Assembly: GCF_018143015.1 (NCBI RefSeq)
Contig: NC_054743.1
Span: forward strand, 35,275,243 to 35,339,242
Length of the DNA stretch: 64,000 nt
Direction: 5' to 3'
DNA from: Lytechinus variegatus
Lineage: Eukaryota
This document shows positions 216 through 50,852 of the stretch, piece by piece. Position 1 is the first letter of the stretch. The number at the start of each line of letters is the position of its first letter. Both the position numbers and the translations under genes were made by a program. The notes below the pieces were generated by a model. That model saw only the letters and a list, made by a program, of their open reading frames with translations, did not search any database and was not told the origin of the DNA.

Positions 216-1897
216 CATCATCATTATGATATCGTTCTTGTTGTTTTAGTATTACACTTTCTGTCAAAAATCCTATACATTTAATTTCCATGAATGTTTT
301 GATCTACGTACTGACATCAGCCTCGTTTCTTGTTTTGTCTCAAGATAGTAACCATTGGAGCAAATCTGTATAATTTCATTCGAAAAATAATATATCGCGA
401 TGCAGCTTGACATGAAAATAATTTTTTTTTTATCTGCAAAGTTCATATTCGTATACATTTTAATACTGTATTTTTTTCGTAAGAATGAATCAAAGATCAC
501 GAAGATTGGATTTTTCTGTATCTACGTTGATTATGTGTAGTTTTGTTTGTTCCTTCTCGATTTATTATAAATTCAGTTATTTATGGTAAACTTTATTTTT
601 AGTTTGAATATTCATATCTTACACAATTTCTATGCTCACATTCGATTTTGAAGAAGTTTTCAATGCTACACTTGTTTCATTTTCTTTAATTTCAAAACTA
701 AATTTGAAAATTTTTCCTTCTAATTTTCCTTCTTTTTAACACCGCCTGAATAATAGTTCAGAAATAATCAAATGCCAAATTCGTATTAACAGCACAATAA
801 TTATGAAAAAGGATAAAAACAAATAGATATACACTGTAATATCAGGAAATAATGATGTTGTGCAGAAGGGGGTTTTGTTATTTCAAACATCATGAACATT
901 GGCCTCGATAGCTATTTGGCCCTTGGCAATCCGCTACATCCACTGCATTTTTGTTTTACCCTTTACTTTTGTCATTATATTGATTGATTTCATCATTGTT
1001 TATGTAATTATTGTATGTATTATTGTACCTTTTAATGGATGTAAATAGAGTGAATTTGAATTTGAAACTTTGCTTTAATAGTTTAAAGCAACGGGAACAA
1101 GAAACGTTACCAAATCCGCGAGGTGTATTTCGTCGCGTGAGCGCAGAAAGGCACACAGCTCACATTTGTTATCTGATATTTTTTTAATTTTTTATTTCTT
1201 TATTTATTTTCTTCTTCTTTTTTTTTTTGGGGGGGGTGAAAATTTTTCAGAAATCCGAATCTTTAATACATGATTATTTCAACAATATACCCACTTAAGT
1301 ATATTTTTCTAAATCAAGAAATATTTGTTAAATCATTTCAAAATGTATTATGTCGATATAAATTATGTATATTTTTTTCTGCTATATGGTTCGATGATAA
1401 AAAAAATATCAGGTATAATTATATTTCAATTAGAATATTGCAGTGTACGTATGCACATGTTACTCATTATGTCATTTGCTTCTTATCATGTTATGCTGAG
1501 AAAAATTATTACACTTGTATTTACTTTTGTTATTGGAATTTGGAAATAAATCAATCAAATCAAATCAAATCCGCCGTGCAGTGCGTTTCGCCGAAAGGGT
1601 CTTCCTATGTTGATTTTGTGTACACGGCAATAAGCTCAGATATTACACGGACGTTAAAAAACATCTCTAAAAAGTGGGGCTTTCTTATAAATCGTTTATA
1701 TTGATTATGCAAATCCTGATTTTATTGAATATACAGCGAGATCTATAAACATTTTAGACATCAATGCCTCTAGGAAAAATATATAATTCGTGTTGAATCA
1801 GTGTTGAGCCATATCATATAATGGTGAAGTTTATGATGGTGCAGTATTTCTAGGTTATGAATCTCCTTTGCTTATATTGTTTACATTTTTAACGATC

Positions 1898-1928
1898 CTT
1901 CTTCTTTTCTTTTCTTTTTTCTTTGCAG
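1898..1928 (+). other. Polypyrimidine tract plus AG splice acceptor for the following exon
   Basis: The sequence cttcttcttttcttttcttttttctttgcag lies immediately 5' of the zinc-finger ORF. The AG is at 1927-1928. Confidence 0.7.
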
Positions 1929-3298
1929 CTGAAGATCGTTCTTTCGTGTGTCCAGTGTGCTCCAAGAAGTTTCGCTACCCGAACACTCTCAAAGCCCACC
2001 TGATGAGATGCGGCGCGTCGTCTAAGAGAACCGCATGTCCGCCTCATCGACAGGAACCTTTAGAAGATTCTACAAGGATTGGTAGCGCCTTCAGACGGGT
2101 CACGCCACGGTCGATCCCCTCTTCGTCATCGTTCACGACCACGGTGACACTCAGCGACGTCGTCACCAACGGGTCAAGACGACCAGAGGAGCACCCTCCC
2201 GAGGAAACCAATGGTAACAGCACAAACAACTCTTCATTTAAGTCGAACCCTTCTAGATCAAGTCCAAAGGTGGGCTTTCGCGCATTCCGCAAGAGCAGTT
2301 CCCCATCATCTACGCGTATGCAAGATACCACCATGAGTTCTTCGGATTCGACCCGGAAGGACTCCTCCAACGTCTTGTTTTCAGTAGATAAGATGTTGAA
2401 CCACACCGAACCACCGAGTTCAAGCAGTCAATCTTCAAAGTCACCGATCGGACTTGATAAGAATGCGAATCCGTTCGATCCGCTTGCCATCCGGTCTCAA
2501 CTTTCCATACCAACCGGCATCGGTCAGTACCGCCCGATCGACCCGTATTTACCGATTCGCTGCTTCCAACCTGTCATCCCCACCATCACTAGGTATGGAA
2601 GCATCCTTCCACCTGCCCATCATAGAGGTTTATACAGTGGTGCGCCTAATCCTTATTTCCCTTACAAAGTCCCCATCCCAACACCTCTCAAATTCGTCCA
2701 CCCAACGCATCCAATCCCTTCACCCAACGAAATAGAAATGCCCAAATTTGCAGGACTCGATCGGAACCATTTACCAGGAGCGTCCTCCTCGTTCCAGGTC
2801 GGCGAAACGCAGTATTCCTATCTGCAGGATTCCAGTAGAAAGAACAAGCGAGGACACCTGTGTATCTACTGCGGCAAGCTCTACTCCAGGAAGTACGGTC
2901 TGAAGATCCATCTGAGGACACACACGGGTTACAAGCCACTTAAATGCAAGGTGTGCCTTCGGCCGTTTGGTGATCCTAGCAACCTGAACAAGCACATCCG
3001 TCTCCATGCAGAGGGGGACACACCCTATCGATGTGAGTACTGCGGGAAGGTTCTTGTCAGACGGAGAGACCTTGACCGGCACATCAGATCCAGGCATCCG
3101 GCCGAAGCGAAGAAAAGAGAGAAGGAATCAGAAGAAGCGGAAGATGCTTCCAGTCACACAACCCATGTCACGGATGAAGACGATCACGATGATGAGGAGG
3201 ATGTCGATATGACGTCACCTCATAGCCCGGATGTCAGAAAGCCGACTGTATTCGAAGAAGGCCTCAATCCATGCATTGATGTACAAAGCAAAAGCTGA
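1929..3298 (+). CDS. PRDM13: Terminal coding exon of a PRDM13-like PR-domain zinc-finger protein. It encodes an atypical C2HC finger, a Ser/Pro-rich linker, three tandem C2H2 fingers and an acidic tail. The stop codon is at 3296-3298.
   Basis: The ORF track gives a 476-aa frame at 1868..3298. The translation contains FVCPVCSKKFRYPNTLKAHLMRC, a C-x2-C-x12-H-x4-C finger typical of the PRDM8/PRDM13 subfamily. It also contains HLCIYCGKLYSRKYGLKIHLRTHTGYKPLKCKVCLRPFGDPSNLNKHIRLHAEGDTPYRCEYCGKVLVRRRDLDRHIRSRHP, which from memory is nearly identical to the vertebrate PRDM13 C-terminal finger triplet. The N-terminal MLILFTFLTILLLFFSFFF portion of the ORF is simply the translated polypyrimidine tract. 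Confidence 0.85.
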
Positions 3299-12560: not shown

Positions 12561-14953
12561 ATACATTCATCATCCGTATGTTGCGGAGTAAAAACTCACT
12601 TGCAAAATCATGTTTATTATACAGTTTGTAAGGCTATTGTATAATACTAAAAAAAAGAAGACAATGACCGTAGCTCGCAAATTGCTTCTATAAACACGTC
12701 GACACAAACAATGAACATCTTTTTAATGTAAACTTGTCATAAAAATGTTTATTATTACGACACAATACAATGACAGAAGCCAATATTTTGGCAATATCAT
12801 AATAACATTAAAAACAGATATATCAACTTTCAAATGACCAACAAAAGATTTACATTCATCAATGAAAATAATGTAATACTACAAAACTGAAAAAAAATCA
12901 AGGTTTCTCTCAAAGAATGCATTTGATTTAAGTAATATCGAACAGAATTTCTATAACTTTACAATTAATTATATTGCACGCATTATAAATTTATACAATG
13001 ACTTATGAAAACACTAAAAACCATTGATGAAAACCATTAAGTGTTTTAATTTAAGTACACGCATTCTCGAATAATTCTATTTTGTGTTCTCCCCTAATCA
13101 CGGTAGAAGTAGTTTTAAGATTTAATTTATTCACAAAAAAAATAATCATAAAACGTGTTTATTGAAACTTTTGAGGGTATTCTTATAGCTTTTTTATAAG
13201 GCATGGATGATTAAAACTTGGGTACATAACTAAGTACTGTATTACGCAAGTACTGTTTTACTTTAAAAATACCAGCATGGACAAGATAGCCATTCAGTAC
13301 ATGAATATGATGTCTCAAATATTCGAATATGTTCAAACCAAATAAAAAGTTGTTTTTAGAAGAAAAAGAAAAACGAGACAAGTATATAAGTGTACAATAT
13401 CAGACAAACAATAAGAAAGTTATGAATGTTTAAAAGTTGTAAAAATTGATAATCACTACACCAATTAAGACTTCAAATTGGCCGCATTGGTGATGTCATT
13501 GTGATGTAAGACAATGACAACTCTTTAATTTACTCCAATACATAATGACTAAAATTCTTCTTCTTCTCGTAATTTTTTTAAAGTTTATTTTGGGGTTTTT
13601 CTTTCATGGGGACATAAAAGAAATATGTTATACTTTGATTACTTTCCCAGGGGAATGAGTACTTATAAGGGAAAAACACAAATCCCTGATAATTACGTTC
13701 ATGACCTGTATGGGAAAGTTGTACTAGCGTTTGTTATGATTTACTTAATCAGTTGCCAATTTTGAATTTAGATAGTCTTAGGGGTCTCAATTTTTAAACA
13801 CCTTTACATTCCTTAATACTTGTCTTGTTCGATTTCTTTTAAACTTTCACAATGTTCCTTTTTCCCCTCTCTGTAACTGAACATTTTATGACCAATGTTG
13901 GCTTCCCCTTTATATAACAGTAATGAATAGTAGCACAAGTATGGTGTAATGTATTCAAACCATATACATTAAAAAACCACATATCAAGTTCTAAAGTAAA
14001 GTAGTATTGGGATTGAAATTGTATTGAAATTTATCATACCGCAGCAGGGGAAAAAATACAAGGCTAGCGTAAATTGTGTATTCATTATATACGGCAAGAA
14101 TCATCCGCTGAATACTCAGAAAGAATGTTGAGTAAATTAACATGGACTAATAAATAAACTGAATGAAATAGTGGAGATTATGATAAAAGTTCACTCGACT
14201 TAAACATTGAAAACAAATATTTTATTGTCACACTGAAAGTCCATATTGAAGTTTTGTAAAAAATACTAAACTATGCAGCTCTATAGAGGGCAGCATATCA
14301 ATTCAAGGAGAAAGGAGGTTGATGAAACTATCCAGTGGACAAGGATCATCTGTTGAGAAATTCAGGAAGAAAGTCTGCCTTCCTTACTCAAACTGTCGAT
14401 CGTCTGATTGATTCTTTAATGAACAATTATTCATGCTTTAATATTTCATTATCATTATTCAATCCTCACATCAGTTTCCACTGAATATGTCCTTATTTAA
14501 TATGTACTAGTATAGTTCGAGTAATAAAACAAAACTCCATATTGCCTTTGTGAATGTAGTGACATTTTTGTGTATTTTGCTGGAACATTGTATTCTGTCA
14601 CCTCCATATGAATAAGAATTGAAAATAAAACTGAAATTCAGCGCGTTAGCATTATGGATTTAACTCTGAAAATGAGTATGTTCAGAACTTTCCAGTTCGC
14701 TAATTATGCATAGCAAGCAAACAGAGAGCTACCATGCTGTATATTACTGACTGTTTCATAATTTTCATCTGTTTGATAAATGCTTTATCATTAAACGAGC
14801 TAGACACTATTGCAACTTGGAACAGTGTCTTAAAACCACAACCACTTCGGAAAGAAGTGCCACACAAATTCTAAGAGTGATGATAGTTCAAAAGTGAAAT
14901 ATAGTGAAAGTCTTGATGGAATGAAGGTGGGGTATAAAAATTTACGCTGTTCA

Positions 14954-15268
14954 TCACCTCCATGCATTGTTAACCCACCCTAGCGTGTAAGTACTACTAA
15001 TATTAGGCATCGTTTGCCCCAAGAAGATAGACGGCTCCGCCTTGTCTTCCAAAGTGTGAAATAATTTATAGTGCGCCCTCTCTAGTTCTTTCAGGACGCT
15101 GTACCAGAAACGGATGACGTCCTGATTGGAGCCTTGCACTTCGAATCCGCTCCAGTTGAGGTGGATGTTGAAGATGAGTTGATGAACACGCGATACCGTC
15201 CCATCAAGAAGAATGTTTTCTAATACTTTCCATTCGGCGCTCTGGAGGTCGGCTCTGATGATATCGAT
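14954..15268 (-). CDS. METTL24: Terminal coding exon of the METTL24-like (FkbM / Methyltransf_21 family) methyltransferase, including the stop codon
   Basis: On the minus strand the acceptor reads tttactttttcag|ATCGATATC. The translation is IDIIRADLQSAEWKVLENILLDGTVSRVHQLIFNIHLNWSGFEVQGSNQDVIRFWYSVLKELERAHYKLFHTLEDKAEPSIFLGQTMPNISSTYTLGWVNNAWR*. The IDI..D.Q.AEW..L motif is the hallmark of the FkbM-type methyltransferase C-terminus. Confidence 0.8.
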   Translation of the reverse strand: MDIIRADLQSAEWKVLENILLDGTVSRVHQLIFNIHLNWSGFEVQGSNQDVIRFWYSVLKELERAHYKLFHTLEDKAEPSIFLGQTMPNISSTYTLGWVNNAWR

Positions 15269-15530
15269 CTGAAAAAGTAAACAGGGAATAATGCAGTTAC
15301 TAAATTATTATGAATGAAACAGTATTACCTAGATGAATTATGAATTATAAACAGATTTTTTTTTATTTGGCAAGGAATTTTAATGGAGGATAAATTGCAA
15401 AGTTGTGACGGTTGGGGGTGGGGGGGGATAAACAACACCAATGATAGAAAAAAATGGGGGAATCTATATAGTTTGCCCCCCCCCATTTAGAAAGTTAATA
15501 TCGTATCAAAATTATTCTTCAAGACTTTAC

Positions 15531-15705
15531 CACCACACCACCATCATCATCAACATCATCATCACCACCACCACCACCTGGTCCACCATATGCACCACCA
15601 ACACCATAAACATCATCGTCATCATCATCATCATCATCATCGTCATCATCATCATCATCATCGTCATCATCATCATCGTTGTCAACACCACCACCACCTT
15701 CATCA
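15531..15705. repeat. (CAT/CACCAT)n microsatellite in the METTL24-like intron
   Basis: Direct reading shows the repeat. The Asp-rich and Met-rich ORFs at 15519..15773 are artefacts of it. Confidence 0.9.
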
Positions 15706-16254
15706 TAACCAATGAACGGTCCCAGACCACAATGATTTGAATTACTTTGTTTAACGTGCAACTGCAGAAACATTTACTCTCGATCTCAGGTCCGAGAGCT
15801 ACTATCCTGAGAGATGGCGCTATACTAATTCACATTCGCAAAGTTATTGACTGCCTTTCTTAGCACTTGACTACGGCAACGGAGATTCATATTATGCTTT
15901 CCACTGAAAGAGAGAGAGAGAGAGAGAAAGGGTGGGGGGGGGGGGGCACGACGAAAGAATTTGTGATAGTTCGACAGGATTTAGCTAGACTGGTAACCCA
16001 AACTATAAAACAATACCATTAGAAGTTGACATTGTAAGCGAACGCAGTGAGATCACTTAAATTGAAGAATCAACAAACACAACATAATGGACAAAAAAAA
16101 ATCACAGCGCAACGACTTGCAGTAAACGAAGTACAACAGTATTCCAGAAGGAATTGTATAAGGTCATCTGGTGTCCGTCCCGGAGACCAAATCTTAAAAA
16201 CATGTATAATGTTTGTGCTGAAGATTGTAAATGAGAAGCTGAAAATTAAGTTAA

Positions 16255-16860
16255 AGGGCAAGTCCACCCCAACCAAAACTTGATTTGAATAAAAAGAGAA
16301 AAATTCAACAAGTATAACACTGAAAATTTCATCAAACTCGGATGTAAAATAAGAAAGTTATGACATTTTAAAATTTTGCTTCATTTCACAAAACAGTTAT
16401 ATGCACATCTCGGTCGGTATATGCAAATGAGGGAACTGATGATATCACACACTATTTCTTTTGTATTTTATTAGATGAAATATGAACTATTTATATTTTC
16501 TCGTCATTGTCATGTGAAATAAGTTTCATTCCTCACTGAACACATGGAATTCCATTATTTTAACATTTTGTGCTTCATGCAAGGAGGTCCTAATCATCAA
16601 ATTCGTAAAAATTGAAACATTGTATAATTCAAACAATAAAAACCAAAAGAATAGTGAATGAGTGAGTGACATCATCGACTCTCCCATTTGGATGTAACTG
16701 GCTCGTTCATATAACTATTTTGTTGAAAATAAGCGAAACTTTGAAATGTCATAACTTTCTTATTTTACATCCGATTTTGATGAAATTTTCAGCATTAAGC
16801 CTGTCTGATTCTCTATTGATTCAAATCAACATTTTTCTGAGGTGGACTTGACCGAAGTCA
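16255..16860. mobile_element. Foldback-type element of repeat family C, with about 150-nt inverted arms (16255-16400 and 16700-16855) around a 300-nt core
   Basis: The sequence cggatgtaaaataagaaagttatgacatt at about 16340 is reverse-complemented as aatgtcataactttcttattttacatccg at about 16745. Both arms end in tggacttg..caagtcca. A diverged one-armed copy lies at 38575-38880. Confidence 0.65.
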
Positions 16861-17062
16861 TCAGATTGGGCCAACTGGTAACAAGGAGGAGCCTAATTGT
16901 GGCACCCACACCAGTTTCGACATCCTCGTCTACAATCTATGCGTCATCATCCATGACTTCGTCGTCATCGAACACAAAGTCATCTTACTCATTTTCGTCA
17001 ACTCATGCCAGCGAGGTGAATTCATATACTTCAGTTGATGAAAGTCATCACAGAGTCATTTG

Positions 17063-17400
17063 CAACTATTTGTATAGCTCAGTCGGTAGTGTGGAGGTTT
17101 CGTATTCCCGTGACCCGGGTTCGATTCACAATTGATGCACAAGTGACCTTTGGTAAGGCATTTAAATCCTCATTACCAGGTCCCTTGGAGAGGACCATAA
17201 GAAGTCGGTCCCCTGGTTGCTTGCTTTCAGTTGATGAACGTCATCTTGTTATGTTATACCGAGGTTTTTTTTTTACCTGACTGCTAAGAAAGCACGAATG
17301 CCTGTAAGCAAGCAACCAGGGGACCAACGGCTTAAGGTCCTCTCCGAGGGACCTGGTAATGAGGATAAATGCCTTAACAAAGGGCACTAGCATCACAGAG
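17063..17400. repeat. Degenerate tRNA-like segment (17063-17135) joined to a 70-nt-arm imperfect palindrome (17155-17225 and 17308-17377)
   Basis: The segment tagctcagtcggtag....ccgggttcgattcac has D-loop and T-loop boxes, but the D-stem partner is tgtg rather than gagc, so it is not a functional tRNA. The arm aaggcatttaaatcctcattaccaggtcccttggagaggaccataagaagtcggtcccctggttgcttgc is reverse-complemented by gcaagcaaccaggggaccaacggcttaaggtcctctccgagggacctggtaatgaggataaatgcctta. Confidence 0.6.
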
Positions 17401-18224
17401 CTATTAGTGTGAAACTTACACCATACCGCACTCATCAAGCTTACTTCATTCTCGACGCAAGCTGATGAATTCAGGAATATCCATATCTAAAGACCTAACA
17501 GCAGCGAATTACGCAATTTCGAAAAAAAACAAGAAAAATCTAAGAAACTACCGCAGCATGGTCAAAATGATGGCCGCATCTTTGTCGCATTACCAACCAC
17601 GAATGACAAGTTTGTCAAGAAGCTCATTAGATCCATGGAAGAAGCAAAGCAGCTTTCAATGTCTTGAGAAATTGAACATCTGACAATTATCATGCTACTA
17701 GAAACAATGAACGCGGAAAAGCAATCTACATAAGTTTATAAATCTTTTAGGATACTTCCATCATACTTTACGTCATGAAGAAGCTTCTTTCTGTTATTAC
17801 TTGACTATTTTACTTGGTAATTGTCTTTTGTTTATTTTTAATTGTTTTTTTTTAATGCAGAAACCATTATTTTGTGGAATATGTAGAAAAGAGGTAAAAG
17901 CTACACATAGAGGTTTGAAATGTACAATGCGTACCTATTAGATTGTTCTTCCGATGTTACTGATAAATAAATACTTCTGAGATTGGAAATGTCGTAAATA
18001 CTGTATGACTGATATACATTTTCCTATGATATGTCATTCCTTTTCCTATGATATTCAGAAGACAGATCTATTCATCACGAATAGCTCACTAGTTTTCTTG
18101 TATATATTGACATAGAAATCGTCATCTTATGCTATTTCTTAAAGACCTATTCCCACGAGGAATTGCAATATATATTTCAGCTTGAAATTTGAACGATTGT
18201 ATAAGCTCATTACAGTAGTAATCA

Positions 18225-18355
18225 TCGCCATTGGCATAGTCATCGCCTTCACAGCCATCATCATCGTCATTATCATCGTCCCTATCATCCTCCTCCTCCT
18301 CCTCCTCATCATCATCATCATTATCACCATCATCATCACCATCACCACCACCACT
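18225..18355. repeat. (ATC/CTC/CAT)n trinucleotide microsatellite
   Basis: Direct reading. Confidence 0.85.
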
Positions 18356-18428
18356 GGTCCAGCATCACAAACGTTCGAGATATTTTTATATTAGGTTCGT
18401 AAACTCAGATTATTTGTTCAATGCTTAC

Positions 18429-18693
18429 CGAGTCGTGTCCCAGTTTGGACATGATAGCAGACAATTTACTTGGTTTCCATGACGATGACCCTTGAAGTCC
18501 AACGTTCGAATCCCGCCAATCAAGGGTAGTTTTGTGTAGTACAATGTTCTCGGGCAATGTTCCTTTGCCCACACCATGTTGTTCACTCTCAGATAGGATG
18601 TGCGCCCTCATGCGACCACTCGGATCAAACACATGCACCTCGCATCCCCTCTCTGCCATCTCAATCTCGAAGCGAATGTTTGATGAACGAGTT
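18429..18693 (-). CDS. METTL24: Internal coding exon of the METTL24-like gene (FkbM-domain core)
   Basis: On the minus strand the acceptor reads ttttttctcttttttag|AACTCG and the donor reads GACTCG|gtaagc. The translation is (G)TRSSNIRFEIEMAERGCEVHVFDPSGRMRAHILSESEQHGVGKGTLPENIVLHKTTLDWRDSNVGLQGSSSWKPSKLSAIMSKLGHDS. GCEVH.FDPS is a signature of the FkbM family. The phase is compatible with both neighbouring exons. Confidence 0.8.
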
Positions 18694-19164
18694 CTAAAAA
18701 AGAGAAAAAAGGAGGGAAAAATTACCAAGACGATGAATAGCGATCGTCTATTTTGATAAAATAAACCTTTAACAACTTTCCACCACAATTATTGTGCATC
18801 CATTGATTTTCATGATTGTCAATAATCATTATTTTCGTTCAATAAGTTGGAGAGCCCACTGAAATGAGATATATCACTTTTTTTGTAAAAGCGACCTCTT
18901 TTATGATACATTTCCCGAGTTATTTCCCCTTGTTAGTTTATCAATTTGCTGTGTATTCCGTATTGGGGAAAACAGGAGGGGATATCATACAACATATTGT
19001 TTCCTCACATAAAGTGTAGCTGCGAAAAACGCAATTTGTGTTTAACACCTAAAAAAATACATGCATGAATTTGCTCTATTTTTTTTATCACCCTGTGAAT
19101 ATGAAACGAATGGAAGAGGGAAATGAATATATCAAAATTGAAATTAAAAATCTGAATAAAATAC

Positions 19165-19310
19165 CCGAATGAGTAGACCACGCATCCGGGTCTTAGAGCG
19201 CCTCTGCCTCCGTAAGATGAACCTTCATCAAAGCAGACCGTCCATGGCCAGTCTGAACCGGTTCCAACCGGACTGCTCCGCCCTACAGCATGTTGCTCCC
19301 GACATTGCAC
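19165..19310 (-). CDS. METTL24: Internal coding exon of the METTL24-like gene
   Basis: On the minus strand the acceptor reads tgtgtattaag|GTGCAATGT and the donor reads TCATTCGG|gtatttt. The translation is VQCREQHAVGRSSPVGTGSDWPWTVCFDEGSSYGGRGALRPGCVVYSFG(G). The motif CVVYSFG parallels the CLVYSLG motif I recall from vertebrate METTL24. An in-frame TGA about 60 nt upstream forces the exon to begin at a splice acceptor. Confidence 0.75.
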
Positions 19311-20606
19311 CTTAATACACAATCGGATAGGATAACACGATATTGAAACTAAGGTTCATATTGTAATGTACAATGATCTAAAACGGGGACTATGACACAT
19401 TGTATTATAACGGCATTGGTTCATAATTGATATGACATAAAACAAAGCAACAAAAAAAGAAACAATAACAAAATGCCCTAAGTTGTAAGGTCTCATTGTT
19501 ACCAATGTATGTAATCATGGTTATGTTGCGAAAATACAGCCACGAAAATCGTAATTAGCCAGCGACATATAACATATTTAGTGCAAGTATCAATTCTCCA
19601 TAATGCAACTGGTCGCATGTCATGAGCTGGTCCAATTTCGTGAACAGAGTAAAAATTGTCATTTTTTATATGTTATAGGTATTACCATTCTGTAAAAAAA
19701 TTTTAAGTCTCAAATACCTTTATTTTTCTTTCAAATGACAAATTAATAGCTAATCATATAGACATCAATATAAATATGAATTTTGAAATGTGTTTTTCTC
19801 AAATTAGACCTGCTGCACATAAAATGGTGTCAAAAGTTAATGCAACATTGGATCACGCTAGTAGTTTGCATTTTTAATCTTGTAACATCAATAATTAAAT
19901 CGGTCACAAAAATCGAATAATTATCTGTTATTGTATGCACATTAATTATACTAATTAATTGACAATATTTAATTTCAAAATTTTGCCCCCAAAATGCCTG
20001 TCATTGTTTGTAATTATGCTTGGCAAAATTACTACATGTGCATCAAGGGTAGACATTTTTATTGCAATGATACACAAAATTTGTACTAAAAATTAAGTTT
20101 ACAAATTACATGTACTAGTAGATAATTAACCCAATTTCTCCAGTTTATTAATTGATTAGGTTGCAGATCAGAGCTGACATACACAATGTATTTCATTCCT
20201 GCATATTTTCAAAATTGTCAAATTTCTATAACATTTAGTTGTTCCCTGCTTTTAAACTGCCTAGAAAAATGAGGCCAACAGTCATATTACATTAAGTTGT
20301 TGATTAAGTTTAATTACATTTTATCATTAACCACATCCACCGTTTCCGCCACCCCTGTTACGTCAAACTTAATGTACTATAGTTTTTGTTCCTGATAATT
20401 TATTGATCTAAAGTAGAGTAATATATTTAGCCTATAGTTTGAGCTTCAAAATGAAATCTTACTCAATAAATTTGGTCAAGATGCTGTGATGGAGCAACAA
20501 TTTATCCATGGCACTATGTGGACTGTTGTTCATCCGCCATGCACCCTTTTTGCATACCCAACTTATGAAATGCGACCAAATGAGAATAGGATATCGGGAA
20601 GAATGG

Positions 20607-20893
20607 GATGGGTGGGAGGGAGGGAGGGAGGGAGGAAAGAAAGAAAGAAAGAAAGAAGATTGACGAAGAGGAGGGTTGGGGAGGGAGAGATGGGTGGATG
20701 GGAGTTGGGGGATGGGAGGGTATAAGGGATGTGTTGATGGAGGGGAGGGGTGACTGAAAGGGGAGTAATGAAAGAGGAGGGAAATTCGATAAAAGGAAGA
20801 GAAGGGGTGAGGAACTTGGGTGGAAATGGAGTGAGATGGAGGTGGGTTGGTAGAAGATTGTGAGAGGGGGGATAGGGAGGGGTGGGGTGAGGG
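20607..20893. repeat. Purine-rich (GGGAGG/GAAA)n low-complexity tract abutting the donor of the exon at 20899
   Basis: Direct reading shows the tract. The Pro/Ser-rich ORFs on the - strand at 20459..21035 are largely artefacts of it. Confidence 0.85.
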
Positions 20894-20898
20894 CATAC

Positions 20899-21006
20899 CT
20901 GTATCTTGGTAATGTATTTGAAGAATCGTCTTGTCTCAGCCTCCATGGAATGATAATTGTCAGCCCAAGGCTGGAGTAGCAGACCCACACTATTCCTCTC
21001 TCCGCT
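20899..21006 (-). CDS. METTL24: Internal coding exon of the METTL24-like gene (36 codons, phase 0 at both ends)
   Basis: On the minus strand the acceptor reads ttttgtttttcag|AGCGGAGAG and the donor reads ATACAG|gtatgccc. The translation is SGERNSVGLLLQPWADNYHSMEAETRRFFKYITKIQ. It joins in frame to VQCREQ..., giving ...YITKIQVQCREQHAVG. Confidence 0.75.
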
Positions 21007-21133
21007 CTGAAAAACAAAATAACATAAAAATTCATTAGTATAACGTAGACTTTAAATTTCTTATAAATAATTCATCCTGAAAGTCATCAATGAGTTTATG
21101 AATTTGAAAATGATAATAGTCTCTGAGAACAGT

Positions 21134-21290
21134 GGGACGTTTCATGAAAGGACTTGTCGGACGTTTTATCCGACAGGTCCCATTTTATCCGACAGTTACC
21201 ATAGGAACATTGCCTCTCAGCCAATCAAAATCATGGAAAGATGTCAGATCTGACAACTTGTCGGATGAAAATAATGATGAAACGCTCCCC
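21134..21290. mobile_element. MITE family B copy with TIR core gggacgtttcatgaaagg ... gatgaaacgctcccc and an internal cagccaatcaaaatca box
   Basis: The termini are reverse complements of each other. Homologous copies lie at 36146-36260 and, inverted, at 49604-49754. Confidence 0.65.
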
Positions 21291-22460
21291 AGGCAATTAA
21301 AGTAGGCATATTTTTTCCTTCAGTGATTGCCTTCAGAAATTCACGACACTGTTGAATGCTGCAAGTAAATAGCCACTGTAATACATTTGAGCGCGAAGCG
21401 CGACGTGAAACATATATGTTATAAACCGACTTGTATTCTCTCTCTCCTTATCTTATTTTTTCTCCATCCATTTTAGGGGGAGGGGCGATAATCTCTACTT
21501 CAGGCACTGCGTTATGCGCTACGTAAGATTCAAGGGTATGTGCCCGTAGACTAACTTTCTACAGACCGATTATAGCCGAGATTCATAGCTCTGAAATTAA
21601 CTTGTCCTTGTCAGCTAAATTAGATCTAGAAGTTGAATGTTATTGATGAGCTCTAGTAATAGCTTACTGATGCTTTTTCCGATCACATCTGTTTTTATCC
21701 TCCGTATACAGAATGATTTGGCGGGGGGGGGGGGGTGGTGATCGCTGACGTTCCGAAATTGAGACAAACATGCTCCCCTTATAGGAAGAAATTGGTAACG
21801 TGATTATCTGAGTGATTTATCCAAACTCGACTTGCGACGACGTCAAATCGTGGTTAGATTTTAGGTTTTACCAATCGAAACTAGAGAATTAGATTAGATT
21901 GTATTTTATTCTCGGTAGGCAAGTTGATATAAAGCGGGCTTTTCGCATTGACAGACATACTGTTTCAAAGGATTCTTTTATCCTGGCTAAATGTACAACA
22001 TGGTTGTGGAGAATAAGCAAGGAGTTTAAAGAGGTATACTCCAGGCTGAAAATAATATGACTTGAAAAGTGTATTTACATCATATGTATAATCAGACAAA
22101 CAAAGCACTGACAATTTCATCAAAATCGGACAAGGAATAACAGAGTTTAGTAGGACATTTTCAAACTCTGATTTATTTCGGTGAAACAGTTCAATATGCA
22201 TGTCTTTATGAATGTCAAATGAGCAAGCTGCATCTCAACATATTCTTTTCTATTCAATTTCATGAAACAGTTTTTTTACAAAATACTGCAAAATTTTAAA
22301 ATCCGATAACTTCGGTATTTTTTGTCGGAATTTGGCGTTTTTTCAGTGTTTTGCTAAATGGACTTTACTCTATTCATTTACATAAATTATTTTCTTTTTC
22401 CGTCCTGAGTCTACCCTTTAAAGTACAGATTCAGTGCCGTTACAGAAGTTGTGACAGTAG

Positions 22461-23345
22461 TGGCGTTGATGATGTTAGCAGTGGTTGTGATGGTGGTAGT
22501 AATGGTGGTAGTAATGGTGTTGATGATGGTAGTAATGGTGGTGATGATGGTAGTAATGGTGTTGATGATGGTAGTAATGGTGTTGATGATGGTAGTAATG
22601 GTGTTGATGATGGTAGTAATGGTGTTGATGATGGTAGTAATGGTGTTGATGATGGTAGTAATGGTGTTGATGATGGTAACAATGTGTTGATGATGGTAGT
22701 AATGGTGTTGATGATGTTAGCAGTGGCGGTGATGATGGTGGTAGTAATGGTGTTGATGACGGTCGTAATGGTGTTGATGATGGTCGTAATGGTGTTGATG
22801 ATGGTCGTAATGGTGTTGCTGATGGTAGTAATGGTGTCGATGATGGTAGTAATGGTGTTGATGTTGGTAGTATAGTGGTGTTGATGATGGTAGTAGTGTT
22901 GTTGATGGTGTTAGAAGTGGTGTTGATGATGGTATTATGGTGTTGATGATGGTCGTAATGGTGATGATGGTAGTAATGGTGTTGATGGTGGTAGTAATGG
23001 TGGTAGTAATGGTGTTTATGATGGTAGTAATGGTGTTGATGATGGTAGTAATGGTGTTGATGATGGTAGTAATGGTGTTGATAATGGTAGTAATGGTGTT
23101 GATGATGGTAGTAATGGTGTTGATGATGGTAGTAATGGTGTTGATGATGGTAGTAATGGTGTTGATGATGGTAGTAATGGTGGTGATGATGGTAGTAATG
23201 GTGTTGATGATGGTAGTAATGGTGTTGATGATGGTAGTAATGGTGGAGGTGGTGGTGGTGGTGGTGATGGTGTTGGTGGTGGTATGGTGGTGGAGTATCG
23301 CAGTGGTAGCAGCCGCAGAGTGGTGGTAATGGTGGCGGTAACGGA
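22461..23345. repeat. 21-nt minisatellite (GTTGATGATGGTAGTAATGGT)n of about 40 units with variant subunits, in the METTL24-like intron
   Basis: Direct reading shows the repeat. The Gly/Asp/Ser-repeat ORF at 22351..22875, the Val/Met-repeat ORFs and the Thr/Ile-repeat ORF on the - strand (22717..23394) are translations of this repeat and are not genes. Confidence 0.9.
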
Positions 23346-23794
23346 AGTTTACTTCACAACCGGTCTTCAGAATACAATAAGGAACAATTTTCATATTTTT
23401 TGTTGTTGTTGTGAGTGAGAGAAAAGAAGAAGCAGTCGGTCTACAATGTATTTATTATTTTTTTAATGCAGACTGAATATGGACACTGTAAAGAGAAGCA
23501 GGTCGAACGTTTTGGAGTAATAATTGGTCTTTCCATTATCTCCGAGTACACCTAGCTGACAACGTACAGTTTTCCATTACAACGTCGATCGCAGTCTCTT
23601 CTCGTGCATAGTTCAAGCATGACGATCAAGTCTGGGACTGTTTACATCGTAAATCTGAAATGCTTTCCAACAGGAATGTAAACAAGTCATATTTCAAGCA
23701 GAGGGACTGCTTGCACGAGATAACCCTTTCTATCGAGAGTTCGGAGGCAAGGAGATGATTCAACCCCACCCCCCCCCCCGTCACAGCAACTGAC

Positions 23795-24075
23795 TCCTTT
23801 CTTTACCATCCGTTTACCCCTCTCCCTCCCTCACCCCACTTTTAAATCTCCACATTTCCCTCTTTCCCCTTGCGTTTTCATACCTCCCTCCTTCTCCACC
23901 TCTGCAATATAACCATAATACATATTTTTCTCTGTTCCTCTCACTTCTCTCCCTCTCGACCCCCTCTTTCCCCTCTGTTTCTCTCCCCTTTCCCCCACTC
24001 TTCATCTGTGTTTCTCCCTCATCTCTCTCTTCTTTTTATTTCGTCCCTTTCTCTCTTTTCACTTCCCCTCTACCA
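23795..24075. repeat. CT-rich low-complexity tract
   Basis: Direct reading. Confidence 0.8.
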
Positions 24076-24467
24076 TGTCTACCACAAATTAACAAGGAAA
24101 AGGTGAAACCCGGAGTGATTAAGAAGAGAGAGACAAATCTTTACTATTATTCTGATATTTTGACCATCTTTAAGATAATGACCTACATGATAAAGACAAC
24201 CTACTTTTAAAATTCCGCTCGAGTTATTTTTATCATTACTCGTATTTACTTTGCTCTCATCACAGATTACCGAGATAATCACACGTTGATAGGGCTTGAT
24301 TGGGCAAAGTAATGTCATTGATTCCGTAAATGGGCTTCATCATCAGAACCATTTCCCGCTAATGTTGTTTATCTTGTAGAATTCACATGCCGACAAAAGA
24401 TTCCGACGCAAATTACTCATCACCTCAACCGGCGTTTTTATGGAGTATCCCATTATTTTGGTAAACA

Positions 24468-24665
24468 TCTCTTCTTCCTCCTTCTCCTCCTCCTCCATCT
24501 CTGTCTGTCTGCCTGTCTGTCTCCCCCTCTCCCTATCTATACCCTCCATCTGCCTCTGTTTTACCGCCTCCCTCCCTCACTTACCCCCCCCCCCTCCCCG
24601 ACCCTCTTTCCATTCTGTCATTCTATTTGTCTGTTCCTCCCTTTGTTTTCTACTTTCTCCAACTT
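24468..24665. repeat. CT-rich low-complexity tract
   Basis: Direct reading. Confidence 0.8.
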
Positions 24666-24955
24666 GCACCAGAGCAAACGCCATTCTCGAGATCTTCATC
24701 ATGTTTATGTATAAATGGCTTTATGTAATGTATAATGTAATGATTATGTGCTCTTATATTGTAATTTAACCTGCCGGCTAACTTAATAGGTTGCCGGGCC
24801 TGGTTCCTTGACACGATCTTTAATAAAGACACGATGTACTACTTCTCCAAGTTCTCTTTCTTTTGTCCAGGTTGTGATTTGGAGGTTTGAGCAACGACTC
24901 ACAATGCGAAAGATAATATTGACACACCCGCCGTTCGTGTATTTCGAATATTTAC

Positions 24956-25045
24956 ACATATTATGCTATTGACACAAGAGAAGAGTAGCAGCGAAGAAAT
25001 TCCAAAGGAGTTGAGAGCACTGAAGAGTCCGAATGCTTCTTTCAT
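24956..25045 (-). CDS. Speculative first coding exon of the METTL24-like gene: an ATG followed by a 30-codon hydrophobic signal or signal-anchor stretch and then a GTAAAT donor
   Basis: The minus strand reads ATGAAAGAAGCATTCGGACTCTTCAGTGCTCTCAACTCCTTTGGAATTTCTTCGCTGCTACTCTTCTCTTGTGTCAATAGCATAATATGT|gtaaat. This translates to MKEAFGLFSALNSFGISSLLLFSCVNSIIC. An in-frame TAG lies 21 nt upstream of the ATG. Phase 0 matches the exon at 21006. About 60 residues would still be missing relative to the vertebrate protein, so another exon may exist or this call is wrong. Confidence 0.25.
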
Positions 25046-25947
25046 ACCAAATGCGCGAAGCGCACTCTACCAAAAAAGAAAAAAAATCATTAATGTAAAC
25101 GTATATACTAACGAAATGTAGCCTTGAAATATAATATATTCGACATGATTTTACGGGACGGGGCTCCCAAATCTCACGAATATGCATGTCGCCTACATGG
25201 TTCCATAATAACCTTCATGGTCATCACCCGTCATGTGCGTAAAGTGCGATGGTGTGACGCATGCATTTCATGGTACATCGAATAATTCAGTCAGGCATGT
25301 TGAAGACTCGTTACGCCGCACTCATCCCGGCGCATCCTGGAGAAAACTCAGGATTTTATTTTTTTTAGAGATGGCAATTAATCGTTCCAGTCTACCGGTC
25401 ATGTGTGTCCAAGGAGTTAAATGGAACCCATTTGGCATGTTTGGTTATTCCATAAAATATGAATGATTAACATTGCCTTTTCCCTTACACAAACGTATAA
25501 TGTTCCATTTTCAAAACAGCACGACACCAAAGATTAGTCTGGATTAACAATGCTAAATGCTGTATAGAATTGTGACATGGAATTGTGTGTATAATTCCCC
25601 AAAGAAAAAAAAAACATGTTATGTATTTCATTTCAAACATCATACAATAATTACAACACGCATTATTGCAAATGTTTGATTTATCATCTTCATTTCCAAC
25701 ATGACATGCTCGAGTGAATAAATTCTCCCCGTCCTTTCCACATCCTCCTAGGGAAATATATAGGCCCTATCTAATAGATTTTTGTTCAAATCCTATCACC
25801 CCTCATTTGAAGTGGCCGATGCTCAATTGTTTTCGAAGTAAAAGAGGGTATATACATATTAATATGTATCAAAATGTGGTAATTAGACCCCCAGAAATAC
25901 ATCCACGACGTCTCATAGATAAATGGCGCTATGAAAATGTTGTTCAT

Positions 25948-26115: not shown

Positions 26116-27689
26116 CGAATTTATTTCTAAAGAACAGCCTCCTTTATCTCTCCCAAGACCCCCGTACGCTCGGGAGATATCATACCGAAGCTAACAGAGA
26201 AGGAAGAAAAGAAAAAGATTTAGGTCTCATTTCCAGCTGTTGAAATGAATTTTCATTCTTATCCTTTACTCTTTCTTGACATTTAGCTGTTGAAGATTCA
26301 ACTGGGGAATACAATTGACAATCTCATTTCAACGCACGCTATCGTCAACATCCACCCCCTCATCATTTCTTTCAGAAATTAGTTACTTATCAAAAGGTAT
26401 AGGCGCCATTATGTTGGGCGCTCCGTCACTGCGCCCCTATCCAAACTGAATTCTTGAATTGCATAACTCATTTCAAACAGTAAGCCTCCATGTCTGATGT
26501 ATGTACATGTATACCATGCATACCCCAACTGTCAATCTGTGCTATAAATAAACAATAAAATTATCATATCATATAAACAGGAACGACTGTTACATAATAA
26601 TGATAATGCTACTCATGTCAATCTTCTATAGCGCTCGAACCAGTTACAGGGATCGGTAGATCATATGGTCTACCTTCATTTAGTCTAATGCAATTCCGTC
26701 CATCAACATTTCATTTATTAACCATTTAACCTGTTAACCATTTGGTCCAATCATCACTTCGTCTAATAACCATTTCGTCTATGACCATATTGTTTCATTA
26801 CCAGTTGATCTAATATTCATTAATTTTGCAGAATTTAACACTAACTCCAGTTAGACTAAATGATATATGGACTAAATAGCTATTGGACCAACTGGTTAAC
26901 AGATGGAATGGCATTAGACTAAATTAAAGAAGACCATGTGGTGAGTGGACGAACTGATGGTAGACCAAATGATAGTAGAGACTAGAGTTAGCAATTGGAC
27001 GAATTGGCATGAGACGAATTGGTAATAAACCCAGGGATCTTCACTATTGAGAAAGAGTTGCAATTAATCAACCATAGTGAACAAGTATTTTGACGGGATT
27101 AGCTTTTTTGGTTATAATTGTGGGTTTTTGACACTGTCAATACAAGACAGACACTAGTCAATGTAGTCTGCTGTTCAAATCCTACATTCGAGTATAGACA
27201 TGATAGCGTGATATGAATATGCAGCATACGATGCCCTGAGTACTGACATAACTGAAGTGAAGCTTGTTTTATATGTGCTAGTCTTGTGCGAAAACCAACT
27301 TGTTGATCAAAGTTTCAATCAGGGTCTGTGTCTGAAGACTAGATAGACACCATGCTCGTACACGGACGATATAAACTCTTACCCCCTCCCCTAAAAAAAC
27401 AATGAAATGAAATAAAAATCGACTTTTTAAAATGTTGTGCAACAGCCTATACGGGAGAGAGTCGTCACGCCCCACCCCCTTCTACAGATGGGGGAGGGGG
27501 GGGGAGCATGAATTCGCCGCGTTATGATAAGATGCAGTTGTTATGATATTTTTAGATGAAAACTGGATAGTTGCGATCAACTTTAATAAATCGGACTAGA
27601 CGCTCACGGTCAAACGGTAATGAAATAATAACGAGTTTTCGCAATCGCAACGGGGATGGATTCTACAACTTAGTAAATCTATTGTAACC

Positions 27690-36260: not shown

Positions 36261-38574
36261 GGACCAAACTTCTATAGTTTTAGTGAAAAAAAGAACAAGT
36301 GACAGAATAAAGCATTTTTATGAAAGGCTTATTGCATTTCAAAGGTTCTAGTGAACACTAAACGCAGCCATACATTTTTTTTCTGGACGTGTAAAATCAT
36401 AAATTACATTTCGGCAATTATCAATACCCGTACATGCAGTGACCTATTGCAGGTGATACGGACTGTCCTAATAAAGGTATTCGAACATTCTCACCCCCTC
36501 CCACCAGCTGTCTCACCCCCATATCCATCTGCCTTGATGATTCTTTCTGATTGACTATGATGCCTTGTATCATGTTTGTGACAGAGTTTATCAATGTTTT
36601 ATTTGCCTGTCACACTGACTGATCGCGCGCGGCAACAAATGCCTGTCGTCTGCTGCGGGCATGGTTTTCGCTTAGTGCATGCACAATCCAGAGTCTGGAG
36701 CGGTGAGACTAGATTCACTCATATACTGTGAATTCTTCTGCATGTTGTTGTTGTTGTTTATGTGGGTTTTAAGGCGCGCGCCATTCAGACGTGAATATTT
36801 ACCATAATTTATATACCTCTATGATAATTACACACAGGGTACGCAGTGTAGGCTTCATTCTGGACATGATATCATTATTTTTTGTCAAAGTTTCAAATTT
36901 GAGTCTGTTTGAAGACTAATATTAATGCTTTAAGCCAATCAAGGGCTGGGCCAAGTTGGTATATATCGGCCTAAGGGGCACAGCAAATTATTGTCACACC
37001 TAATAATCTGACATAGAAAAATTTATATCATTTTAAAAAAACCCAACATGCCCAAAGGACACAATCCGCTCAGCATCCCCCTGTCCAATATCATTTGTGT
37101 AAATGCATGAATGTATGAACTAATTCTATCAGTAACAAAACAATTCTCCAGGTATATCTATAAACCCTCATTCAAGATCAACGCAATGTCTGAATTATAG
37201 CCCAATAACACAACCGTTGCACAGAAAACAAACTAACTAGGCTAAAAATAACGACAGCTTACAAAACACCCCTTGAAACTTGAAAATGAACATAGTATAC
37301 TTTGCTTACAATACTGAATGAAATCAACCGCAATGTCTGTTTACAATGTATGCACTTCACAGTCACAGCGGATCACTTGTTTAAGAATAAATCAAAATTT
37401 ATCCACCCAAGGGGGGCATTTTAAATGACCGATTTCTTCCATATATAGCTCTGCTCCTAGCAAGTTGAGTAACTACATCGGTGGATTGTTATAAAACTTG
37501 ACCTTCTGTGTCTAACATTTAAATGATGCGAACAGATGTATACGCTAAGGAATGAGGGAGGAGGGGGGGGGGGGGCTAAAGCGAAAGCAAATCTTATGAT
37601 TTTTTTTTAAACCGATCAGGGGGTATCCTTGAACCATGGAATTCACGACTCCCTGTTTGATCGTTTAAACTTTAACTATCGTCTGCTTTAGAATAATTCT
37701 TCCATGGTTGATGACATTGGCGTATACAGATGGAGGGTTAAGGCTATGACCCCCCCCACACACACACACACTTAAAAAGTTCCACGACCCTCCCCCAAAA
37801 AAGAGGGAAACATTGAAACAGAAGATAAGGAAAGAAAAAATATTGTAAGATATGATGTTCTTTCTTAAATATTATATGTCAAAGTCAATCACTATAGTCT
37901 CCAAGCACAGACTCATATTTGATATTTTAACCAATAATACCGAAGTCTATAGTGAAGACTAGATGCCAAACTCTCTGTCTGTGTCAAACAAGAGCCAGCC
38001 ACAGAACATGGTGAATCTAGTCTCAATAGTTCAGACTCTGTATTATGCACTATGCGAATGGCGAAACCCTAGTTTGCCTACAGACTATAGCCTATATCAC
38101 AAAGTTAGATTTTCATTTTGAAAAGAAAAATGTTATTCGCTCGCTTCCCTCACTCGGGACTTTAAGGAAATTTTGTCACACACCTCACGTTGCGTTGTGT
38201 CCCCTCATTTTTTTGCACATTACTGCTGGTTGAAGAAATAATCTGAATAGCAGGAAAATCTGAAAGTAACTTTATATGAGCACAATGCTTATGGCGAGAA
38301 GGCGAGAAAATGAGCCTTGAAGACTCAGAAACTTATTTCATATCGATTTCTCGTCCTGGGGATGTAAATATGGTGAGGTCAACTTAAAGAAATGTAATGT
38401 TTGATTTAATCATTTTGAAATGAAAGTGTGAACCGGAAGTCCTAATCACAGGTCTCGCGAACGTGACCTCCAGATCAAAGAAATTAAATATGAAATGTAT
38501 TACACTATCTCTATAGCAATTTGGGCAAATGGTAATCCAAATTCCATACAAACGACGTAGGATGAAAGTTACTT

Positions 38575-38880
38575 AAATGGAAAGTTCACCCCAACAAAAA
38601 AGTTGATTTGAATTAAAAGAGAAAAATGAACCAAACAATGGAAATTTAATCAAATTCAGATGTGAAATAAGAGTGTTATTAGTCACGACATTTTTTAATT
38701 TTAAAATTTCATGTATTGTCACAAAACAGATACGTCCGATAAACAAATGACGGAACTGATGAAGTCTCCCGCTCTTTTTGCGTGTATTTCATTATTATGA
38801 AATCTGAAATATCTTAATATTTTCCTCATGTGAAAAACAAAGTTTGATTCCTCAATGAATAATATTAAAATTGCCATTGC
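38575..38880. repeat. Repeat family C copy, a diverged homologue of the 16255-16560 arm
   Basis: It is collinear with the 16255-16560 arm across the boxes ttcaccccaac..aaaagttgatttgaat.aaaagagaaaaat, ggaactgatga and ctcatgtgaaa. Confidence 0.6.
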
Positions 38881-40360
38881 TGAAACCTATTGTAATTCAA
38901 TGATGATTTCCCTTATCATGCTTATTGTCAAATCTATAAAACTGGATATATTCTAAGGGGCTTTTCACACGTGCATCTTGAATCATCATTATAATAATGA
39001 TTGCTATTGTTATCGTGACTGTGATTAGCGTTCGTGATTCTAATCATGTTCTAGTTTGGTTTCACACGTGCTAAACAGTCGTCATTAGCCTTATTTTCAC
39101 TGGAATCATCATTCAAATTACGATTGTTTTACCGTGTGAAAGGGCGGTATGTTTCATGCAATAACACACAAAACAAAGGGTGAGTGTATGAAACCGTAGA
39201 GTTTCTCATTTGCATAAATTGTCATCTGTGTTGTGAATGCAACTGTTTTGTGTAAATAACAGAAACTTTAAAATGTCATCATTTTTTTGCTTCCAATTTT
39301 TGATGAAACTGATAGATTTATGCTTGTGTATTTATTTTGTTGGGGGTGGACTTGCCCTTTAACATTGATCAAGAATATTATGTGATATTTACTTATGGGG
39401 CTTTTTAATTGATAATATTTTACCAAATCAACACACTTCGAACTCAAACTCATCTCAGGACGAAAATGAACAAAAGTTAACTTTTAAACATGGAAACAAA
39501 ATTAGAAATAAAACCACTTTCATGTTAGGCAAAAAATGATTTTATAAATGTAACCAGCAATGATCATTGATATTGTATCATCATATATATGTTTTTTAAT
39601 GGAAATCGAACTGAAGTCGTTCCCTTTAACTGGCTGGCTGTACCACATATGTAGCCCATGGTGACGTGATTGGCTCCACGCTGTGGTTTTGTGTTTCTCA
39701 TTCTAGCATAGGTCCAAGTTTAACGAGATTTCAGGTAGTATGGCATGCACATGTGGAATAATGAATGATTTATTTACAACACAACCATTCGAAACCACTA
39801 ACAAATCACAAATCACGACCTTCATTACATTCTGCGGTGTTTGTTTTTTTACAATTCTGTTAAAATATCATATTTGTAATATTCACAGGATGGAATTTGA
39901 TGAAGTAAACCGACATCGTGATAATTATGAATAAGCATGAAAACAGAAGTGTGGTCAAATAAAATACAATACATAGGCCTTCTAAATAAAATTAGTGATG
40001 TAACAATTTCTACCGAAAGAACGTTGATTTCTAGTTTGGAATTGTTTCTAGTTTGAATATAGACAATGTTGGATACGTATAGTTGTCTCATGGGCGGAAA
40101 TCTGTCAGCAAAGGTAGGGGGATCAGAGACTGGAAAATTTCGCACCCCCCCCCAAAAAAAAGGTATTCACCAAAACGTGTAAGGTCATTTAGTCAAAAAT
40201 ACCGGTATCATTTCGGTTGTGAATGATTTTTTTTCTCCATCATAAAAGACCCAAAATAGTAGGGGGATATTTGATATTGTGACCCCTACTATTTTTGGTA
40301 GGGGGCACGTCCCCCTGAGATTTCCGCCAATGGTTGGTCTTATCATTATCATCTTTTATT

Positions 40361-50220: not shown

Positions 50221-50486
50221 ATCATCGTCATCATCATCATCACCCCTACCACCACAACCACCACCACCAGGTCCACCACCACATGATCATCGTCGTCGTC
50301 ATCATCATCATCATTATCATCACCATCATTAACATCATCACCACCACCATCACCACCACCACCACCATCATCATCATAACCATTACCACCACCATCGTCG
50401 TCGTCGTCATCATCATCATCACTATCGCCATCATCACCATCACCATCATCATCACCATCATCACCACCATCGTCATCATCATCGTC

Positions 50487-50518
<32 letters not shown>

Positions 50519-50820: not shown

Positions 50821-50852
<32 letters not shown>

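Follow-up and report, generated by a model that had tools for sequence, protein, structure and literature searches.

Human METTL24, also named C6orf186, belongs to an orthologue group of the Pfam family PF13383 (Methyltransf_22). The literature searched contains no demonstrated substrate or activity for METTL24 in any species. The FkbM family (PF05050, Methyltransf_21; structure 2py6) has the class I SAM-methyltransferase fold, which the sea urchin METTL24 described here is predicted to share.

We analysed a 64-kb stretch of the genome of the green sea urchin Lytechinus variegatus (the window), which holds a gene of five coding exons on its minus strand. This is very probably the single-copy METTL24 orthologue of the species, the likeliest product being a signal-anchored or secreted SAM methyltransferase. 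The 277-aa product of the four 3' exons shows 100% identity to the C-terminal 277 residues of a 449-aa NCBI record (P0001) titled 'methyltransferase-like protein 24 [Lytechinus variegatus]', bearing out the first-pass annotation of the locus as a METTL24-like methyltransferase gene. The best matches of the protein over the whole domain are METTL24 proteins, and the matches listed in the search are all either METTL24 or unnamed/hypothetical (E-values from 1e-188 to 1e-46). Across ∼96% of the query, identity to orthologues ranging from hemichordates to mammals is 39-48%. A tblastn search with the protein recovered no second METTL24 copy in the rest of the 64-kb window. The gene is already known under the same name from the NCBI annotation of the L. 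variegatus genome, and the locus is that of an ordinary gene. To this annotation our analysis adds an independent confirmation of the junctions and the correct position of coding exon 1, on the far side of a 25-kb intron, and it removes several over-readings of the first pass: membership of the FkbM Pfam family, introns made largely of repeats, a G-rich tract at a donor site and an altered substrate specificity. Overall the locus matters little; the gene is named identically in the existing annotation.

The coding span runs from 46834 to 14954 on the minus strand, and all five segments of the NCBI protein map to it at 100% identity (tblastn). Coding exon 1 (46834-46319, 516 nt), located by tblastn of aa 1-172 at 100% identity, starts with the ATG at 46834 and encodes the putative N-terminal hydrophobic anchor and a charged disordered linker; this ATG and the donor at 46319/46318 (GAG/GTAAGC) were both read directly in the sequence. 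Intron 1 (46318-21007, 25,312 nt) separates it from coding exon 2 (21006-20899, 108 nt, phase 0/0), which encodes SGERNSVGLLLQPWADNYHSMEAETRRFFKYITKIQ. Coding exon 3 (19310-19165, 146 nt) carries the WPW segment, the conserved Cys211, Cys234 and Cys251, and motif I (VVYSFG). The invariant GCEVHxFDP segment lies in coding exon 4 (18693-18429, 265 nt), and the coding part of the last exon (15268-14954, 315 nt including the TGA at 14956-14954) contributes IDIIRADLQSAEWKVLE and the C-terminal half of the domain. The four 3' exons total 834 nt (108 + 146 + 265 + 315), with the frame closed by the TGA stop. The first pass had proposed precisely these four exons, and its proposal holds: the coordinates are right, all junctions are AG/GT, the phases are compatible and 277 aa are encoded up to the TGA. 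The accompanying translation matches as a string, apart from a double Gly in 'SFG/GTRSS', which is a single codon split across the junction. The 3' UTR extends to 14901 or beyond.

Support for the junctions comes from the NCBI L. variegatus model and from related species, namely urchin RNA-seq contigs and the L. pictus genome. Three RNA-seq contigs from a related urchin, whose protein is 86% identical, contain an uninterrupted 442-aa open reading frame, and when aligned to the window they are interrupted precisely at the METTL24 coding junctions. The L. pictus locus is collinear, with intact exons at 93-96% nucleotide identity and AG/GT sites identical in position. The proposed boundaries at 21006/20899, 19310/19165, 18693/18429 and 15268 are thus matched by both the contigs and the L. 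pictus locus. An L. pictus model of 257 aa is an example of METTL24 starting at Met192.

Contiguous with coding exon 1, the region 48102-46835 (minus strand) is a probable 5' UTR, as indicated by its collinear similarity to 5' leaders of the related species: the leader segments of two transcripts, L001 and L002, have counterparts, spaced alike, at 48102-47821 and 47507-47178. Further upstream on the same strand, the region 54802-54665, with approximate limits, may be a non-coding 5' exon: the opening 140 nt of the related-species transcripts resemble it, positions 1-140 of L001 and 1-131 of L002 aligning at 77% identity. These similarities suggest that the 5' UTR of METTL24 probably extends as far as 48.1 kb and may go on to 54.8 kb.

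The repeats reported in the introns exist, in part with other dimensions than first described. Intron 1 holds a minisatellite, purine- and pyrimidine-rich tracts, interspersed repeats, a guessed ATG exon and a highly conserved block of 350 nt. Three tandem arrays, recorded without strand, were delineated by TRF. The 21-nt minisatellite of intron 1 spans 22467-23293 with its degenerate flanks, that is 827 nt and not ∼900 nt as first given, and has a core at 22502-23245 with 34.9 copies and 84% matches. A (CAT)n microsatellite, (ATG)n in the sense orientation, occupies 98 nt at 18353-18256, 75 nt downstream of the exon-4 donor, and a (CAT)n-type microsatellite of 149 nt lies at 15677-15529, 260 nt upstream of the last acceptor. 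The tract adjoining a donor is also present: it covers 309 nt (20898-20590, minus strand) directly 3' of the exon-2 donor. The GGGAGG reading of this tract applies to the plus strand, while the transcript strand reads CCUCCC and is 82.5% pyrimidine, with 51% C and 2% G. Tandem and low-complexity sequences account for 10.5% of intron 2, 0% of intron 3 and 10.6% of intron 4, so that the description of the introns as largely repeats was overstated; their share in 24955-21007, originally taken for the first intron, is 29.6%. What remains consists of unique sequence or interspersed repeats. All in all, the introns of the gene carry micro- and minisatellites and interspersed elements of the ordinary urchin kind. 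The minisatellite and the C-rich tract are crossed by long open reading frames (22717-23394, 22351-22875, 20459-20896 and others), which were rejected as coding sequences: they consist of stop-free repeat units and have no homologue. No tRNA was predicted by ARAGORN anywhere in the window, the tRNA-like arm near 17100-17170 included, and the 64 kb gave no Rfam match at gathering thresholds.

At the level of protein families, the product falls into Methyltransf_22. PF13383 scores 29.7 bits on the 277-aa product and 28.2 bits on the 449-aa protein, against a gathering cut-off of 22.4 bits. The assignment to the FkbM type did not stand: PF05050 reaches 12.2 bits on the 277 aa versus a cut-off of 22.7 bits, the sub-threshold match covering the IDIIRADLQSAEW region, and gives no match at E<=0.1 on the full 449-aa protein. 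Primate METTL24 scores 27.1 with PF05050, above the cut-off. In the AlphaFold model of the 449-aa protein, a helix (15-49) is followed by disorder (49-178) and then by a folded domain (180-449); the disordered aa 49-178 hold the mean pLDDT of the model down to 65. According to this model, the C-terminal domain (aa ∼180-449) has a generic class I Rossmann-fold SAM methyltransferase fold of the family Methyltransf_22. The predicted fold is no nearer to the solved FkbM structure than to class I methyltransferases of other families, and when the PDB was searched by sequence, using the protein or a 14-sequence profile, the matches were all at chance level (E 0.04-0.3).

The N-terminus of METTL24 consists of an Arg-rich stretch followed by a hydrophobic segment at aa 19-37 with a Kyte-Doolittle maximum of 2.35. 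A disordered linker of ∼130 aa with many R, G, D and S residues connects this segment to the domain, in which N-x-S/T sequons occur at N383 and N434. From the hydropathy, the four invariant Cys and the two sequons of the domain, we infer that the domain is lumenal or exterior. The urchin METTL24 would most likely be a secretory-pathway enzyme, either signal-anchored (type II) or secreted, whose catalytic domain would face the lumen or the exterior and transfer a methyl group from S-adenosylmethionine to its substrate. Catalysis itself we infer from the family and the modelled fold.

Several readings of intron 1 and its neighbours compete with this plain gene model. The segment 25045-24956 (minus strand), which lies inside intron 1 and outside the gene model, had been guessed to be the first exon; the guess was wrong, as the true first coding exon, 46834-46319, lies 25 kb further upstream. 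A 100-nt sliding identity profile against L. pictus rejected special conservation of this segment. That it is nevertheless a real, possibly alternative first exon, joining a 30-aa signal-like peptide in phase 0 to exon 2 and yielding a short secreted isoform, is barely credible. It does have an ATG, 30 open codons, a GTAAAT donor and a phase that fits exon 2, and the reading frame is kept in L. pictus with an in-frame 12-nt insertion. However, a 30-codon frame is to be expected by chance and an indel stays in frame in one case in three; the segment is missing from the NCBI METTL24 protein, has no similarity in the three related-species transcripts (L001-L003), and at 94% its identity to L. pictus is on a par with that of intron windows nearby (for example 95% at 25300-25201 and 24400-24301). 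The 350-nt block at ∼21940-21590 stands out from this intron: between the two Lytechinus species its identity is ∼97%, against an intron background of ∼85%, and equals or exceeds that of the exons. It is very unlikely, though conceivable, that the block is an internal promoter or enhancer for an N-terminally truncated isoform starting at Met192 in exon 2; if it were, a METTL24 without the putative signal anchor would arise, and one gene would supply cytosolic and secretory-pathway forms. Equally tied to the introns is the proposal that variation in array length modulates METTL24 splicing, which we consider extremely unlikely. The pyrimidine-rich tract begins at +7 of the exon-2 donor and the (AUG)n array follows the exon-4 donor closely, and sites so placed near donors can in principle bind splicing regulators. 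The tract is C-rich and not G-rich on the sense strand, so the known logic of G-triplet intronic enhancers is inapplicable; a C-rich tract also follows the exon-2 donor of L. pictus. The arrays are orthologous in L. pictus and differ 1.6- to 6-fold in length in a comparison between species, with one haplotype represented here, but the splice junctions are unchanged and the annotated L. pictus protein uses the same ones. By collinear alignment and TRF, the minisatellite is 384 nt in L. pictus versus 827 nt here (0.46x), the (ATG)n array on the side of the exon-4 donor is 562 nt versus 98 nt (5.7x), and the (CAT)n array before the last acceptor is 235 nt versus 149 nt (1.6x); the latter array, moreover, lies beyond the branch-point region of exon 5.

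The remaining alternative concerns the protein, which might keep a methyltransferase fold for binding and not for methyl transfer. Columns counted in 106 full-length homologues bear on this reading from both sides. The glycine-rich loop of motif I is degenerate in echinoids (SFGTRSS): the urchin protein has G257-T-R259 where 88 of the 106 homologues read G-L-G, and the position of G257 is itself S or R in 16 of them. The aspartate of FDP, D280, is present in the urchin protein and in 101 of the 106, and is replaced by N, S or V in four; biochemical activity of METTL24 is likewise absent from the reports searched. On the other hand, none of the 106 homologues deviates at G273, C274 or H277 of GCEVH or at E357 or W358 of EWK, and E275, V276, D352 and K359 are near-invariant. 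In class I methyltransferases, the equivalent positions belong to the SAM-ribose and catalytic-loop regions, and a conservation that extends from sea urchin to mammals is in keeping with selection on an active site. A pseudoenzyme is thus unlikely, and an active methyltransferase is the preferred reading. Among the orthologues from hemichordates to mammals, 36 columns are invariant, including GCEVH, EWK and the four Cys, and the motifs GCEVHVFDPS and IDIIRADLQSAEWKVLE that the first-pass annotation had singled out are present and rank with the most conserved columns in the family. Its statement that vertebrates have DGGW was not borne out, A-K-K-P-W being the commonest sequence at the positions of urchin S-D-W-P-W in the 106 homologues, and we found no support for the altered substrate specificity suggested on that basis.

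Compared with vertebrate METTL24, the urchin protein shows 39-44% identity across 96% of the domain. It has in common with the METTL24 group the YS, GCEVHxF-P and EWK motifs and the four invariant Cys, as well as a hydrophobic N-terminal segment and, behind it, a variable linker. In echinoids, however, the charged linker is much longer, giving a protein of 449 aa compared with ∼360 aa in vertebrates. The echinoid proteins also read WPW where most vertebrates have K-P-W, and their motif I reads G-T-R in place of the G-L-G of most homologues.

The minus strand of 14800-25200 was read directly, and the four METTL24-like exons proposed in the first-pass annotation were assembled and translated. 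These exons, numbered here as coding exons 2 to 5, lie at 21006-20899 (108 nt, followed by GTATGC), 19310-19165 (146 nt, followed by GTATTT), 18693-18429 (265 nt, followed by GTAAGC) and 15268-14954 (315 nt, with TGA at its end). All four have a pyrimidine tract and AG upstream, and joined they give 834 nt in one frame with a terminal TGA. The core observation of the annotation is correct; its translation is the same string as ours except for one doubled Gly, whose codon is split over the exon 3/4 junction. In a protein-collection search the 277-aa product was 100% identical over 100% of its length to P0001, the 449-aa L. variegatus protein that NCBI likewise names METTL24. The next-best match was L. 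pictus (96%), and an unnamed urchin transcript product (86%), a Diadema protein (73%) and METTL24 of hemichordates, other echinoderms, amphioxus and vertebrates (39-48%) were also found. The match identifies the window as DNA of L. variegatus and the gene as a known, annotated METTL24 orthologue, to which we add the actual position of the first coding exon and a number of corrections. A tblastn search with the protein detected no second gene copy within the window.

Residues 1-172 of P0001 map by tblastn to 46834-46319 (minus strand) with 100% identity. This coding exon 1 of 516 nt starts with an ATG at 46834, has the donor GAG-GTAAGC at 46319/46318 and ends in phase 0, which is compatible with exon 2. 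Its position makes intron 1 (46318-21007) 25,312 nt long, enclosing both a 21-nt minisatellite and the ATG exon at 25045-24956 that had been guessed to be the first. The guessed sequence is therefore intronic, and we consider it highly improbable that it is a real alternative exon: its ORF is retained in L. pictus, where 12 nt are inserted in frame, but the identity of its 100-nt window to that species (94%) is equalled or exceeded by several neighbouring intron windows, and none of three related-urchin RNA-seq contigs contains a match to it.

These contigs (L001-L003, from Logan runs SRR31798687-9) carry an uninterrupted 1,329-nt ORF encoding the protein P0003 and are collinear with the window. 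The blastn alignments break at 46319, 21008-20897, 19312-19165, 18691-18433 and 15269, the same junctions. Their 5' leaders resemble 48102-47821, 47507-47178 and 54802-54665, a similarity that suggests a long METTL24 5' UTR running directly into exon 1, and perhaps a further non-coding exon upstream, both with approximate boundaries. In the related species the METTL24 mRNA leader is unusually long, at ∼1.7 kb (nt 1-1740 of L001 and L002). Window positions 31100-4900 align collinearly with the genomic locus of L. pictus, whose exons (93-96% identity) keep open frames and the AG/GT sites; in the alignable parts of the introns, identity is mostly 80-90%.

Tandem Repeats Finder (TRF) detects the repeats noted earlier: the minisatellite at 22502-23245 (34.9 copies, 84% matches; 827 nt with degenerate flanks) and (CAT)n arrays at 15529-15677, before exon 5, and 18256-18353, after exon 4. 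The description of the introns as consisting largely of repeats is overstated. Tandem and two-base low-complexity sequence makes up 8.9% of whole intron 1, 10.5% of intron 2, 0% of intron 3 and 10.6% of intron 4, reaching 29.6% in 24955-21007. The tract after the exon-2 donor, reported as GGGAGG, has on the transcribed strand a pyrimidine content of 82.5% and 2% G, so that the pre-mRNA instead reads CCUCCC-like. L. pictus has orthologous arrays of unequal length (827 nt against 384 nt for the minisatellite, 98 nt against 562 nt for the array after exon 4 and 149 nt against 235 nt for that before exon 5, L. variegatus first); the arrays are therefore length-labile over evolutionary time. Since the junctions are nevertheless identical in both species, the suggested influence of array length on splicing is unlikely to be strong.

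Other non-coding elements accompany the gene. A block at ∼21590-21940 in intron 1, 600-900 nt upstream of exon 2, is ∼97% identical to L. pictus (100% at 21800-21701), against ∼85% for the intron background and 93-97% for exons. Its sole indel is a poly-C length change, it includes a TGACGTCG element, and it has no match in Rfam. Possible roles are those of an intronic enhancer or an internal promoter; the 257-aa NCBI model of L. pictus begins at the exon-2 Met. The sequence at 16240-16540 belongs to an interspersed repeat family, judging from diverged copies at 38563-38859 and 39149-39327. An inverted repeat at 17166-17366 in intron 4 (65-nt arms, 91% complementary, 71-nt spacer) is missing at the orthologous L. 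pictus position and has an 86% identical copy elsewhere in that locus, which makes a mobile element of the MITE or SINE type probable; ARAGORN called no tRNA in the tRNA-like stretch flanking it. Stretches at 19400-20700 (intron 2), 16300-16800, 17900-18200 and 26650-27400 align with nothing in the collinear L. pictus locus and are lineage-specific insertions or deletions. Large CAT/ATC-type arrays upstream of coding exon 1 (50200-50900 and 52040-52600), readable as poly-His, poly-Ile or poly-Ser ORFs, are sequence kin of those inside METTL24, and arrays of this kind seem to characterize the region as a whole rather than METTL24 in particular. A 476-aa ORF on the plus strand at 1868-3298 scores 69.5 bits for Pfam zf-C2H2 (four stretches): a single C2H2 zinc finger lies at the N-terminus and three more at the C-terminus, with a long Ser/Pro-rich linker between them. 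The ORF probably represents the terminal exon of a gene for a zinc-finger transcription factor, arranged tail-to-tail with METTL24, and its fingers may resemble the PRDM8/PRDM13 type.

From an alignment of 14 sequences, AlphaFold predicts a helix (residues 15-49), a disordered R, G, D, S-rich linker (49-178) and an alpha/beta domain (180-449, pLDDT mostly 75-94). Hydropathy peaks at 2.35 over residues 19-37, downstream of an Arg-rich N-terminus. The domain contains two N-x-S/T sequons and the cysteines C211, C234, C251 and C274, invariant across the alignment. We infer a signal-anchored or secreted protein with its domain towards the lumen or exterior.

Among 106 full-length homologues, G273, C274, H277, F279, E357, W358 and E362 are invariant, and D280 and D352 are shared by 101 and 104, respectively. 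Motif I reads G257-T-R259 in the urchin and G-L-G in 88 of the 106. That the urchin protein is a pseudoenzyme seems to us unlikely. Where the urchin has S-D-W-P-W, A-K-K-P-W are the most frequent residues in the other homologues, rather than the DGGW ascribed to vertebrates; WPW is common to the urchin and hemichordates, and nothing in the analysis points to the changed substrate specificity that had been suggested. The literature searched names no METTL24 substrate for any species and consists solely of expression and prognosis studies.

The protein exceeds the gathering cut-off of PF13383 (Methyltransf_22; 22.4 bits) with 29.7 bits for the 277 aa and 28.2 bits for the full protein. For PF05050 (FkbM), the family proposed earlier, the 277 aa score 12.2 bits against a cut-off of 22.7, and the full protein gives no match at E<=0.1. 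Taking the lack of a PF05050 hit literally as refutation would reject a correct gene call. By Pfam's criterion the urchin protein lies outside PF05050; the FkbM relationship holds at the family level, because a primate METTL24 passes both PF13383 and PF05050.
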